Assembly (NCBI GenBank): GCA_000004695.1
Contig: CM000152.2
Location: 3,744,001 to 3,808,000 of the forward strand
Length of the DNA stretch: 64,000 nucleotides
Source of the DNA: Dictyostelium discoideum
Taxonomy: Eukaryota
Direction of reading: 5' to 3'
A program made the position numbers and the translations under genes. Numbering within the stretch: position 1 is the stretch's first letter; each line of letters begins with the position of its first letter. Shown in pieces: positions 27,010 to 30,818 of this stretch. The notes under the pieces were generated by a model that made no database searches, was not told where the DNA came from, and worked only from the letters and a program-made list of their open reading frames with translations.

Positions 27010-30000
27010 TTAATTCGAATTATTATCATTAAAAGTGAATCTATTTAAAGATGCAACCAATGGTGATTGATCCACATTATCGTTATTATAATAATTTTGA
27101 TTGTTATTATTATTATTGTTAATTTCTTGGTTATTGATTGGATAAGTATTTGATAATTGAGGAGTTGTAAATGAAATTGATTCAGCTCTAAATTTACTAG
27201 AGTTTACACTACTTGATAAACTATAACTTAAACTTTCTTCATCATTAATAACGGAATGATTATGAATACTACCACTATTTATTACATTTGGAGAGGTATC
27301 CAATGATGGATCAATTGTAAAATTTTGTTGAGAGACAGATTTTGTTGCACTAACAATCTTTTCGAAAATATTATAACCAAGGTCAGTGACTGATTTAGAA
27401 GTTTTCTCTTGAATCTTTAAGAATTGATCTCTATAATCTCTAGCAGAGTCAAAAAAGGAGATTGCAAATGAAGTGATTGGATTCTTTAGCATACCTCTTA
27501 GATAATCGGTTGCTTCTTTCTTTGGTACACCTGGTAAGAACCTACCGCCAATGATGTCTTCAATGTAGGCTTCATCGATTAAACCAGCTACTTTTGGATC
27601 TAAACGAGTTAGAAAAGTAATTTGATAAAGGAAGAAAGAGTGATGTTTTCTTAATTGAAGGAATAGTCTAATACAAAGGTTATAGAAATCTTCTTTCTTC
27701 TTTTCATTATCCAAGAATTGATCTTCAAATGCTGTATCGTTTCTAATCACTGATGAAAAGAATTTTGGATCCATACCAAGGATGAAACCATAATCAATGT
27801 GAAAGATTTTCATCTCTTCTGTAAACATTACATTTTGATTATGTCTATCACCAACACCCAACAAATGAGTGATAATATTCCAAGTTGCCAATGATCTTGA
27901 AAAGTTTTTGGATGCTTGATCATAGGTGAGTGTTTGGCTACTACCCAAGAATGAAGTTATTCTGTTATATTCGACGAGTACATCCTTTAAGGTTTTTGAT
28001 TTCTTTACTGGTTCAATGAATCCATAGTTTACACCAGTTGGTAAAACACGATAAACTATTGGTTGCATGAATGGTTCCTTATGTTTTTTCTTTCCACTAC
28101 TTTCTTTTAATTTACGAAGTTCATTACATTGAATGATCAATTCATTCATTAAATAAATTAGATTTAGAATGATTTGATCTTTTCTAAGATCATCATGTTT
28201 GAAGATTAAACCAAAATCTTTTTCTTTACCTGTTCTATCATTGACACAATGACAAACTAAATAGAGTGGTTTGGTTGCAGATTTGAAAACAATCGATTCT
28301 TTAACCTTAAAATATTTAATAGTGTATGCTGGATTTGTTGGTAACTTTAAGAGTGAGCCTTGAGTCTCACAAAGATTAGTTAACTTTGTCTCTAGATACT
28401 CTCTATTTGGTAAAAACTCTATACCTTCTCTTATTGGACGATGTTGTTGTAAAATATGTGATAATTCGAAACCAAGTTGATAACTTTGCATTTGTTGTGG
28501 TGCTTCTCTTGTCATATAATTTGTAAATTCTAATTTCAATGCTTCATATCTTAAATCATATTCACCACCTTGACAATTCTTTAATTCCCAAATAAAATTA
28601 TATGCAATTGTTTGATCATTCTTTGACGATTCAAATAAAAAATCTGCTAAATCTGATTTAACATTTGGTTCATATCTAAATTAATAAAATAAATAAAAAA
28701 AAATTAATTAAAAATTAAGAATTTAAAAAAAAAAAAAAAAAAATCTACAATAATAATAATAATAATAATAATAATAATATTAAAATTTAATTACCTTAAT
28801 AAAAATGTTAATTGTGGTAAAACATATAATAATTTATCACCTAAACCTTTTAATTTGTTTGTTGCATAAGTTCTAATGAATGGATGAGTTATATTTCTAT
28901 CTAATAATGGTATAATATTTAATGGTGAAATTGTACATTGACAAGAACTTGAACACATTAAGTAATAACAATCCTTCTTATCACCAATATCCTCTTGAAG
29001 ACAATGTTGTAAACTTTTCAATTGTTTAGTGGTGATTCTATTATAATCAATTGAACATAATAACTTCATTAACCAAAGTGAATGACATCTAAGGTCTTCT
29101 CTATTTCTCCAAAGTACCAACTTTTCAAATGGTTGTAATCTATGAGTTGGAAATTTATATTGAATCATTCTAATTTGTGATAGATAAATGATGGTGGCTC
29201 TTCTCCATTGTGGATAAATCGAAGCGAATCTTCTTAGTGGACCAAATCTTAAGCCCAATAACTTCAAAAGGGAAACATCATTGAAATGACGTTGTGACCA
29301 ATCCAATTTATCATAACATGTTTTACAAACCCTACAGGTTTTATTTGAATACCATTTATATAGATAATCCTTTACACCATAATAGATTTGACCTGTTGAT
29401 AAATAATCTTGCTCAACAAAATATGATGCACATGTTGAACAAAACATCATACCACATTCTCTACAATGATGTCTATGATTATAATATAGTTTATCATTAC
29501 AACGATAACAATTTTGTGATGATGGTAAGGATAAATTTAATTTTCTTGGATCTAATAATTGGACGATATCAGGTGGGAATTTATCTTCATTGGCATCATT
29601 ATTACCAACACCACCAACACCGCCAACACCACCAACACCACCAACACCACCAACACCACCACCTATACTATTATTAATGCCATTATTCACTAAACCTTCT
29701 AATTTATGTGGTGTTACAAATCTATCAACCATTGAATTATACATGAAATTTGTATTGACTTTATTGAATGAACTAAATTCTGAGAATGCATTTTCCCTTT
29801 GAATTTGATTCTTTTCAGATAAAGAAAACTCTTCACCTGGTTCTCCAAAATAATTCAATGCCTCTGATACACTTTTTAATGATTCTAATTTTCTTTCTAA
29901 ATTCTTTCTAAATGCTTTCAACAAATAGCCATCAATAACATTGAAATAGTTTGCAATTGCTACCAATCTAGATAATTCAACACCACGACCTTTCAATGAT

Positions 30001-30818
30001 AGATATTGTTCAGCTCCCATCATTAATTTACATCTATTCATTTTTGATAATTTAAAACTTTTATACCATCCAAATGTTAAACTTGAATATATTATCTCTA
30101 ATGCTGGTATATTTTGTTTATTAACTCTTTGTTGTTGATTATTTTGTGATGTTGGTGAATTTTGTTGTTGTTGTTGTTGTTCCTGTTGTTGTTGTTGTTG
30201 TTGTTGTTGTTGTTGTTGTTGTTGTTGTTGTTGTTGTTGTTGTTGTTGTTGTTGTTGTTGTTGTTGTTGTTGTTGTTGTTGTTGTTGTTGTTGTTGTTCG
30301 TGCTCTTGTTGTTCTTGTTGCTGTTCTTGTTGCTGTTCTTGTTGTTGTTGTTGTGGCTGTTGTTGTTGTTGCTGTTGTTGTTGTTGTTGCTGCTGTTGTT
30401 GTTGTTGTTGTTGTTGTTGTTGTTGTTGTTGTTGTTGTTGTTGTTGTTGTTGTTGTTGCTGTAGTAGTTGTTGTTGTAGTTGTTGTTCTTGTTCTTGTTG
30501 TTGTTGAATTTGTTCGTTACAACATGAATGTAAACTATCAAAGAATTTAATAACCAAATCTATATCTTCATGTGTCACATGTATTTCTTTTGGTGGTTTA
30601 ATGACAAGGTATCTTGCATTTTTATTTATTTTTAAATGTGCTTCAATTTCATTTTGGAATAATAAACAATATTTAATAAAAGCAGTTGGTATTGGTTTTG
30701 TTTCTGCAAGTAATTGTATATAAAGTTTAAATCCAGCTGGTAAACTATTGATTAGATTATCCCCATTATTACTGTTACCATTATTACTATTAATATTATT
30801 ATTTCTATTATTTAACAT
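27010..30818 (-). CDS. phosphatidylinositol 3-/4-kinase family protein with a FYVE-like zinc finger and a long polyQ tract (about 1230 aa, 2 exons)
   Basis: The CDS is join(30818..28795, 28676..27010) with a GTAATT donor and a ttaatttag acceptor. The catalytic motifs FGLIFKHDDLRKDQIILNLI and LGVGDRHNQNVMF...FHIDYGFILG are present. A PIK-accessory-like block KLLYVLPQLTFLLRYEPNVKSDLADFLFESSKNDQTIAYNFIWELKN spans the junction. The cysteine cluster is CYRCNDKLYYNHRHHCRECGMMFCSTCAS...CRVCKTCYDKL. Confidence 0.7.
30146..30480. repeat. (CAA/CAG)n trinucleotide repeat (read as TTG/CTG on the plus strand), about 110 units, encoding polyQ within the PI-kinase-family CDS
   Basis: A near-perfect gttgttgtt run is read directly. 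There is a second block around 38790..38955 and a smaller one at 37980..38260. Confidence 0.9.

Follow-up and report, generated by a model that had tools for sequence, protein, structure and literature searches.

A FYVE-bearing, Vps34-related PI3K gene of Dictyostelium discoideum with predicted Skp1-like and F-box-like segments

Described relatives and the gene in the window

PIKfyve/Fab1 and the class II PI3Ks, lipid kinases with a phosphoinositide-binding module (PX in class II) on the catalytic chain, are precedents for self-targeting to membranes containing phosphatidylinositol 3-phosphate (PI3P). In yeast Rcy1-Skp1 and RAVE, the Skp1:F-box pairing serves as a structural module on endomembranes, and not for ubiquitination. 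In this study, we analyzed a stretch of 64,000 nucleotides of Dictyostelium discoideum DNA (assembly GCA_000004695.1, contig CM000152.2, positions 3,744,001 to 3,808,000), hereafter called the window, and focused on a lipid kinase gene at 27010-30818, on the minus strand (-), as are all its features given below. From N to C terminus, the predicted protein comprises a Skp1-like domain split by a polyglutamine (polyQ) tract, a variant FYVE zinc finger, an F-box-like segment, a PIK helical domain with a His/Cys3 cluster, and a Vps34-like catalytic domain. The best explanation, which we consider probable, is that it is an active PI 3-kinase of a distinct Vps34-related subfamily, the family of Mimivirus L615.

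The window protein shares with PIKfyve and class II PI3Ks the module on the catalytic chain, but the kinase domain of PIKfyve is of PIP5K and not of PI3K type, and class II enzymes carry C-terminal PX and C2 domains plus a Ras-binding domain. With Rcy1-Skp1 and RAVE the likeness would be an analogy only, the sequence relation being limited to the Skp1 and F-box folds, and here both partners would lie in one chain. Vps34 (PIK3C3) has in common with it the PIK helical domain and kinase core, with an activation loop of the phosphatidylinositol (PtdIns)-specific type, G-x-D-P-K-P; among PDB entries the family profile matched Vps34 best, and our tree shows Vps34 as the sister group. The window protein differs from Vps34 in having no C2 domain, hence no obvious entry to Vps15/Beclin complexes, in its additional FYVE, F-box-like, Skp1-like and His/Cys3 parts, and in belonging to a separate clade. 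Finally, L615 (UniProt Q5UR69, known here from papers) and the FYVE-PI3Ks of giant viruses show the same FYVE-then-kinase order, the F-box-like motif, the His/Cys3 cluster and a Vps34-like loop. Most viral forms, however, are ~700 aa long, with a canonical FYVE and no Skp1-like domain, although one viral subgroup (P0011-P0013 and P0015) does have such a domain.

PI3_PI4_kinase was listed as a rare FYVE partner by Banerjee et al. in 2010 (PMC2837644). Two years later, Rappoport and Linial (2012) described L615 as a FYVE plus kinase protein whose best BLAST hits were the dictyostelid proteins D3BQ22, Q54UU9 and EGC34678 (PMC3271019), and L615 has been termed a class III PI3K homologue (PMC4569851). 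Judging from PMC3271019, the window gene is almost certainly UniProt Q54UU9. It is omitted from a 2026 preprint that compares PikA-C and PikE-H and in which PikE is D. discoideum's own Vps34 (bioRxiv 10.64898/2026.05.11.724005). Databases already contain the gene and its FYVE-kinase architecture, and both received a passing mention in 2012; the family is uncharacterised. The Skp1-like domain, the F-box-like motif and the His/Cys3 cluster, all missed by the initial annotation of the window, appear to be undescribed. Nothing relevant was found in the literature on a Skp1/FYVE/PI3K combination, nor on a named oomycete FYVE-PI3K.

The gene has two exons and one intron, and codes for 1229 aa plus a stop. 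Coding exon 1 (28795..30818) provides residues 1-674 and two bases of codon 675; it was delimited by reading of the open reading frame (ORF), with an A-rich leader ahead of the ATG at 30818 and the Dictyostelium purpureum orthologue aligned from Met1. Coding exon 2 (27010..28675) provides residues 675-1229 and ends with a TAA at 27012-27010; its 501-aa ORF was 100% identical to a public-assembly entry (P0002). The intron (28676..28794) is 119 nt long, with 4% GC and GTAATT...TTTAG ends, and its removal restores the frame (...LPQLTFLL/R/YEPNVKSD...). The D. purpureum protein (P0001, 1158 aa) was the closest in public data, with 65% identity to a FYVE-to-kinase query and the same three domains, and it is uninterrupted at the position of the junction (LPQLTFLLRYEPNVKSD). 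Because it reads through, and because the Pfam match of the helical domain also spans the junction, the two exons are, by these alignments, part of one gene and one transcript. This agrees with the single intron proposed initially, and speaks against the possibility, raised at the same time, that the exons belong to separate transcripts; the initial length of 1230 aa had counted the stop. The window as a whole has a G+C content of ~20% and is rich in CAA and AAT repeats, as is typical of a dictyostelid genome.

Kinase core and relation to Vps34

The catalytic domain (residues 830-1024, 27628..28212) matched PF00454, PI3_PI4_kinase, with 78 bits (cut-off 27.1), and the PIK helical (PI3Ka) domain, which extends across the intron (residues 550-733, 28501..29171), matched PF00613 with 52.7 bits (cut-off 31). 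Both assignments had been made earlier from motifs alone, and are borne out here. The motifs are LIFKHDDLRKDQ at residues 831-842, GVGDRHNQN at 948-956 and FHIDYGFILG at 966-975; they provide the ATP-binding Lys K834, the catalytic loop residues D951, R952, H953 and N956, and the metal-binding D969 in HIDYG. In an alignment of 182 family members, these six residues were invariant in 181-182 of them. The DFG-type motif is DYG, a form shared by 116 of the 182 with its Asp invariant. As judged from these residues and the comparisons below, the kinase is catalytically competent and a class III-related PI3K, yet not Vps34 itself.

A PDB search with the single protein did not resolve the class, since p110gamma (4e-27), PI3K-C2alpha (1e-25) and Vps34 (6e-25) came out close together. 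With a profile built from 42 family members, Vps34 was found at 1.8e-104 (354 bits), p110gamma at 6e-85 (289 bits) and PI3K-C2alpha at 6e-77, which places Vps34 65 bits ahead of class I. We also computed a neighbour-joining tree with 100 bootstraps from 512 columns taken from the helical and kinase regions. The FYVE-bearing kinases formed a monophyletic clade (100/100), which grouped with Vps34 against class I (100/100). Within this clade, the dictyostelid proteins made up a single subclade (100/100), and the other inner branches were supported by only 19-36 replicates out of 100. One tree reference, P0206, was confirmed as a true Vps34 by its match to human PIK3C3 (6.5e-217), and the reference group P0208 is class I-like; the FYVE-PI3K clade is separate from P0206.

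The activation loop points the same way. It reads HIDYGFILGMDPKFF, to be compared with HADFGFILGRDPKPF in Vps34, so that GMDPKFF in D. discoideum stands where Vps34 has GRDPKPF, and the pattern G-x-D-P-K is retained. The basic box of class I loops (KxxxRERVPF type), present in P0003 and P0208, is missing. Neither a Ras-binding (PF00794) nor a C2 domain (PF00792) matched the protein in Pfam at E<=1, as the initial annotation had noted by eye; both are also missing from the precomputed Pfam lists of the family, and the stretch from the F-box-like segment to the helical domain is too short to hold a C2 domain. Because there is no C2 and the clade is separate from P0206, the family is, on the available alignments, related to Vps34 but not a Vps34. 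The class, which had been left open, can thus be given as sister to Vps34 on the joint evidence of family profile, tree and activation loop. A class I or II assignment was rejected, since PF00794 and PF00792 found no match, the basic box is missing and the family profile favours Vps34. Identity with PikF, PikG or PikH was rejected as well: their catalytic Lys lies at 1119, 1415 and 1586 respectively, against K834 here, in a protein of 1229 aa.

FYVE finger, Skp1-like and F-box-like segments

The variant FYVE finger (residues 433-505, 29304..29522) matched PF01363 with 45 bits, or 52.6 bits as an isolated domain (cut-off 27.8). Its motifs are CYRC at 437, HRHHCRECG at 448-456 and CRVCKTC at 495-501, and the eight zinc-binding Cys form four CxxC pairs (C437/C440, C452/C455, C460/C463 and C498/C501). 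Other zinc-finger models of Pfam (RING-like, IBR, C1) scored at most 14 bits, under their cut-offs, and the closest solved relatives in PDB were all PI3P-binding FYVE domains, from endofin, Hrs, EEA1, Alfy, Vps27 and RUFY1. The FYVE assignment made initially is therefore well founded, and the concern that the Cys cluster might be a finger of another type is not. The D. discoideum finger holds a 32-residue insert before RVC. This insert, between the third and fourth Cys pairs (29300-29420, residues ~464-495), is Tyr-rich in dictyostelids (QIYYGVKDYLYKWY); it has a length of ~23-40 residues in the kinase-family examples compared, and of about a dozen in EEA1.

The finger is a variant in that two of four signature elements kept by its family relatives are lost. 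WxxD is missing, as suspected initially and confirmed by motif comparison with relatives, the sequence ahead of the first Cys being ...RKLNLSLPSSQN. RVC is present, and so are HRHHCRECG and the eight Cys; the first basic residue of R(R/K)HHCR is replaced by His. Among 126 relatives, WxxD is kept by 86, (R/K)(R/K)HHCR by 111 and RVC by 106. Within dictyostelids, R(R/K)HHCR is retained in Cavenderia, Heterostelium and Synstelium, whereas the first basic residue and the WxxD region are lost in D. discoideum (HRHHCR), D. purpureum (NRHHCR) and Tieghemostelium (TRHHCR). In the EEA1 and Hrs structures, the first Arg and WxxD contact the headgroup outside the 3-phosphate. The residues which we take from these structures to hold the 3-phosphate are retained in D. 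discoideum; the first Arg and WxxD are not. By this comparison, we expect the D. discoideum FYVE to bind PI3P in a weakened manner that needs avidity. Product feedback or endosomal self-targeting, as first suggested for this protein, is plausible, but should be weaker than was implied.

By family profiles, the N-terminus is a Skp1-like domain split by the polyQ tract. Its N-terminal, BTB/POZ-like half covers residues ~25-102 (30513..30746), as located by the family N-terminal profile against PDB and by hhalign. The C-terminal half, residues ~232-360 (29739..30125), corresponds to the F-box-binding helices of Skp1 (...LVAIANYFNVIDGYLL...EEFSLSEKNQIQRENAF). Two relatives, P0011 and P0012, reach the Pfam cut-off for Skp1. 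When a profile of 15 family N-termini was compared with PDB, 33 of the 34 matches at E<=1 were Skp1 (best 1.9e-18, over Skp1 residues 7-171), the remaining one being Elongin C at E 0.34. A profile without dictyostelids gave Skp1 in all 33 matches (7.6e-16), and one with dictyostelids only gave it in 28 out of 30, with a best E of 5.9e-4 over Skp1 residues 85-147, the F-box-binding helices. The two sets of N-termini are themselves related: hhalign aligned dictyostelid with non-dictyostelid sequences over 138 columns, BTB/POZ-like half included (97.4% probability, E 1.1e-11), and a non-dictyostelid hidden Markov model (HMM) matched D. discoideum residues 297-359 with 12.6 bits (E 5.5e-6 in a one-sequence search). 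According to the family profile, 32 of 235 collected sequences have this domain.

The homology with Skp1 is thus seen at profile level, over the whole Skp1 length and including the helices that hold the F-box. The differences are that the window domain is fused to a kinase, is much diverged, and has a 117-residue polyQ in a loop; moreover, it shows FSLSEK at the place of FTEEEE in human Skp1. The third position of this FTEEEE-type motif is a hydroxylated Pro in D. discoideum Skp1, and is a Leu in the window protein.

The polyQ tract (residues 103-219, 30162..30512) had been estimated at about 110 residues, close to the 117 measured, 103 of which are Q (95 CAA and 8 CAG codons, with Q runs of 35 and 38). 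Tandem Repeats Finder reported 115 copies of TTG at 30162-30506. In the profile alignments its flanks, ...VIKFFDSLHSCCNE and ...WYKSFKLSK, correspond to the site of the variable internal loop of Skp1, and the tract is not present in the aligned D. purpureum orthologue. Because of this position and of its absence from D. purpureum, the tract is best read as a species-specific loop expansion, not a functional module.

At family level, the 30-40 residues C-terminal of FYVE are recognisable by profile as an F-box-like motif. Of 57 family segments isolated and compared with the Pfam models PF00646 and PF12937, 33 matched F-box-like (best 8.4e-9) and 20 matched F-box (best 4.6e-7), and a viral member, P0230, was above both cut-offs as a whole protein. 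All 13 PDB matches of the segment profile were F-boxes (KDM2A/B, Skp2, FBXL2 and FBXW8), with weak E values of 0.024-3, and hhalign aligned the dictyostelid F-box-like core with other members at 97.0%. In D. discoideum, the positional homologue of the motif is residues 513-543 (29190..29282, NDVSLLKLLGLRFGPLRRFASIYPQWRRATI). Taken alone, this segment had no match in Pfam or PDB, and it was also missed by an HMM of the non-dictyostelid F-box core: as far as these comparisons go, the motif is degenerate in the D. discoideum protein.

At the start of the helical domain, the family alignment revealed a His/Cys3 cluster, H579, C617, C622 and C626 (CHSLW...DCYYLMCSSSC, 28941..29084), conserved in 174-180 of 182 members. 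Its three Cys are within an insertion and stand opposite gaps in the Vps34 and class I sequences. The His column is not restricted to the family, since 2 of 6 comparison sequences also have His there. This conservation suggests a candidate extra zinc site.

Family distribution, proposed function and surroundings

When the D. purpureum orthologue was used as query in an exhaustive HMMER search, 3663 cluster representatives proved to be related, of which 184 had E<=1e-30. The FYVE core (HHCR-type, mostly the full R(R/K)HHCRxCG) is present in about 130 of the top 150; in these it lies ~470-500 residues N-terminal of GxGDRHxxN and is combined with a typical loop HID(Y/F)G(F/Y)ILGxDPKP. Such numbers, and the catalogue entries of 2010 and 2012, do not sustain the initial view that the architecture is rare. 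As judged from the contigs, the family counts its cluster representatives in the hundreds, and giant viruses are the source of most. The many members of ~700 aa are encoded on metagenomic contigs that are long, dense in genes and free of introns, and that bear giant-virus markers: P0199 has VLTF3, D5-like and mimivirus-type DUF (domain of unknown function) genes as neighbours on a 403-kb contig, and P0013 is surrounded by RFC with an intein, DnaJ and FtsJ. In IMG/VR, at least 173 relatives were found, mostly on contigs named GVMAG. Cellular members include dictyostelid orthologues from all dictyostelid groups (Tieghemostelium, Cavenderia, Heterostelium, Synstelium and D. purpureum), whose database name where there is one (Tieghemostelium, Cavenderia, Heterostelium) is merely 'phosphatidylinositol 3-kinase'. 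Others are from Soliformovum and Thecamoeba (Amoebozoa), Aphanomyces (an oomycete), Salpingoeca urceolata (a choanoflagellate), Euglena gracilis and Chloroparvula (a green alga).

A few family contigs deserve mention for themselves. The 16.9-kb, giant-virus-like contig of P0230 encodes an F-box directly after FYVE, and the second gene downstream codes for a Kelch/beta-propeller protein of FBXO42 type. On a 120-kb giant-virus-like ENA contig with the FYVE-PI3K P0186, a TnpB/Cas12f-like gene (weak Pfam match) and a DDE_3 transposase are found at 14331-16316 and 18818-19834. The Skp1-like/FYVE/PI3K member P0024 (NCBI MDP2436224.1) was deposited as 'MAG: FYVE zinc finger domain-containing protein [archaeon]'; the DNA of its 6.8-kb contig is probably of eukaryotic or viral origin and was binned with an archaeal metagenome-assembled genome (MAG).

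We propose the following function for the window protein. Since its loop pattern, G-x-D-P-K, is Vps34-like and the class I basic box is missing, the kinase would phosphorylate PtdIns to PI3P, and as there is no C2 domain it would probably do so without a Vps15/Beclin scaffold. Its own FYVE would probably place it on endosomes, phagosomes or macropinosomes, and the weakened finger of D. discoideum would probably need avidity or a second contact. The Skp1-like domain would probably pair with the F-box-like segment in cis, or with a partner chain or dimer, and the outcome could be a scaffold or a dimer, or else a connection with Skp1 complexes of cullin type or of non-SCF kind. Such pairing would replace an external Skp1, and the short viral forms, which are without a Skp1-like domain, could bind host Skp1.

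Several points weigh against this reading. The D. discoideum N-terminus alone, with or without polyQ, had no match in Pfam or PDB, and neither had the F-box-like segment; the two segments of this species are recognised through family profiles only, and their pairing is purely what we infer. Both structure models made with AlphaFold2 (AF2) are of low confidence: that of exon 1, from a 2-sequence alignment, had a predicted local distance difference test score (pLDDT) of 35, too poor for use, and that of D. purpureum residues 1-393, from 5 sequences, had 47.9. In the latter model, Foldseek found FYVE and BTB folds, none at E<=1e-3, and the BTB matches lend the Skp1-like domain weak support. The tree is distance-based, with two Vps34 sequences only and without a PI4K outgroup. 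The loop after IR, NDTAFEDQFL in dictyostelids, has diverged from the conserved Vps34-like EMVExxGG, which makes substrate choice uncertain. PI3P binding by the D. discoideum FYVE may be weak or lost, given the missing WxxD, the His in place of the first Arg/Lys and the 32-residue insert. Finally, no functional study of any family member was found in the literature.

Other explanations were weighed against the same data. The protein may simply be a PI3K or PI4K of whichever class, with a canonical PI3P-binding FYVE that gives product feedback and lets the kinase spread on endosomes. This is a serious contender, although on balance we doubt it. The FYVE is real, the kinase is predicted to make PI3P, and most relatives hold the full signature (WxxD in 86, R(R/K)HHCR in 111 and RVC in 106 of 126), but D. 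discoideum and D. purpureum retain neither WxxD nor the first basic residue, the equally conserved Skp1-like and F-box-like parts are left out of the picture, and the class is resolved by the family profile. The protein could also work chiefly within a ubiquitin-ligase-type assembly, in which the F-box-like/Skp1-like module recruits cullin or host Skp1 and the kinase-like part is a substrate or membrane receptor instead of a lipid kinase. The presence of both parts within one family, a viral F-box above the Pfam cut-off, and short viral forms in which the F-box-like motif persists but the Skp1-like domain is missing, as though they relied on host Skp1, would fit such an assembly. We nevertheless find it unlikely: catalytic residues invariant over 182 members argue for selection on kinase activity, cullin binding is without support, and the D. 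discoideum F-box-like segment is degenerate.

Still less probable, in our opinion, is a recent capture from a giant virus, leaving in the amoeba genome a viral remnant with little host function. Most relatives are indeed on giant-virus contigs, and the best hits of Mimivirus L615 are dictyostelid proteins. However, the dictyostelid proteins, from Dictyostelium, Tieghemostelium, Cavenderia, Heterostelium and Synstelium, form one clade (100/100), the intron is of host type and the composition host-like, and cellular members occur in five further eukaryote lineages; the inner nodes of the tree, on which the direction of transfer depends, have a support of 19-36/100. The protein could, lastly, be a PI 4-kinase or a pseudokinase devoid of catalysis, but we consider this very improbable. 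The Pfam kinase model is common to PI3K and PI4K, and DFG is changed to DYG, but the best 60 PDB matches listed were all PI3Ks, for the protein and the family profile alike, DYG is found in 116 of 182 members with its Asp invariant, and the Lys and the catalytic loop are intact.

Coming back to an active, Vps34-related PI 3-kinase, its interest is that Dictyostelium is a main model for PI3K signalling, phagocytosis and macropinocytosis. If PI3P is made independently of Vps34 complexes, this genetically tractable cell would have a second, differently regulated PI3P source. A relative is also present in giant viruses, Mimivirus among them, where it may serve to reshape membranes of the host. The Skp1-like/F-box-like pair on a lipid kinase would be an unexplained link from phosphoinositides to SCF-type machinery. 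A broader proposal, which we advance only tentatively, is that kinases with FYVE, F-box-like, His/Cys3-helical and Vps34-like parts constitute a fourth, so far unrecognised PI 3-kinase class, ancient in eukaryotes and widely captured by giant viruses or exchanged with them, with Skp1 as regulatory partner and a Skp1 paralogue fused on in many lineages including Dictyostelium (a Rosetta-stone fusion). If this were true, PI3P synthesis on endocytic membranes would be tied to Skp1/cullin machinery, or a Skp1:F-box scaffold would act instead of Vps15/Beclin.

Two low-complexity features complete the protein. A (GGV)n linker between the Skp1-like domain and FYVE (29604..29661) is encoded by a tandem repeat of period 9 in 6.4 copies, and is missing in D. 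purpureum. The C-terminal tail (residues ~1116-1229, 27013..27354) is rich in Ser and Asn and poorly conserved in the orthologue alignment.

Around the kinase gene, scans for bacterial-type promoters and terminators were uninformative, the locus being eukaryotic. Immediately upstream of its promoter region, an ORF at 31563-32312 (-) contains pyridine nucleotide-disulphide oxidoreductase domains (thioredoxin-reductase-like). A 1161-aa ORF at 23239-26724 (+), very acidic with long Asp/Glu runs and without Pfam match, converges on its 3' end. Three ORF pieces with RRP12 HEAT-repeat matches (PF08161, PF25772) at 16317-20534 (-) look like a multi-exon RRP12-like ribosome-biogenesis gene. Finally, a run of N at approximately 38960-39060 lies inside the ORFs 38446-39504 (-) and 38428-39060 (+) of a polyAsn/Ser-Gly-Tyr-Thr repeat gene; it coincides with an extreme GC skew (0.605) of the bin 38001-40000, and resembles an assembly gap or masked stretch.

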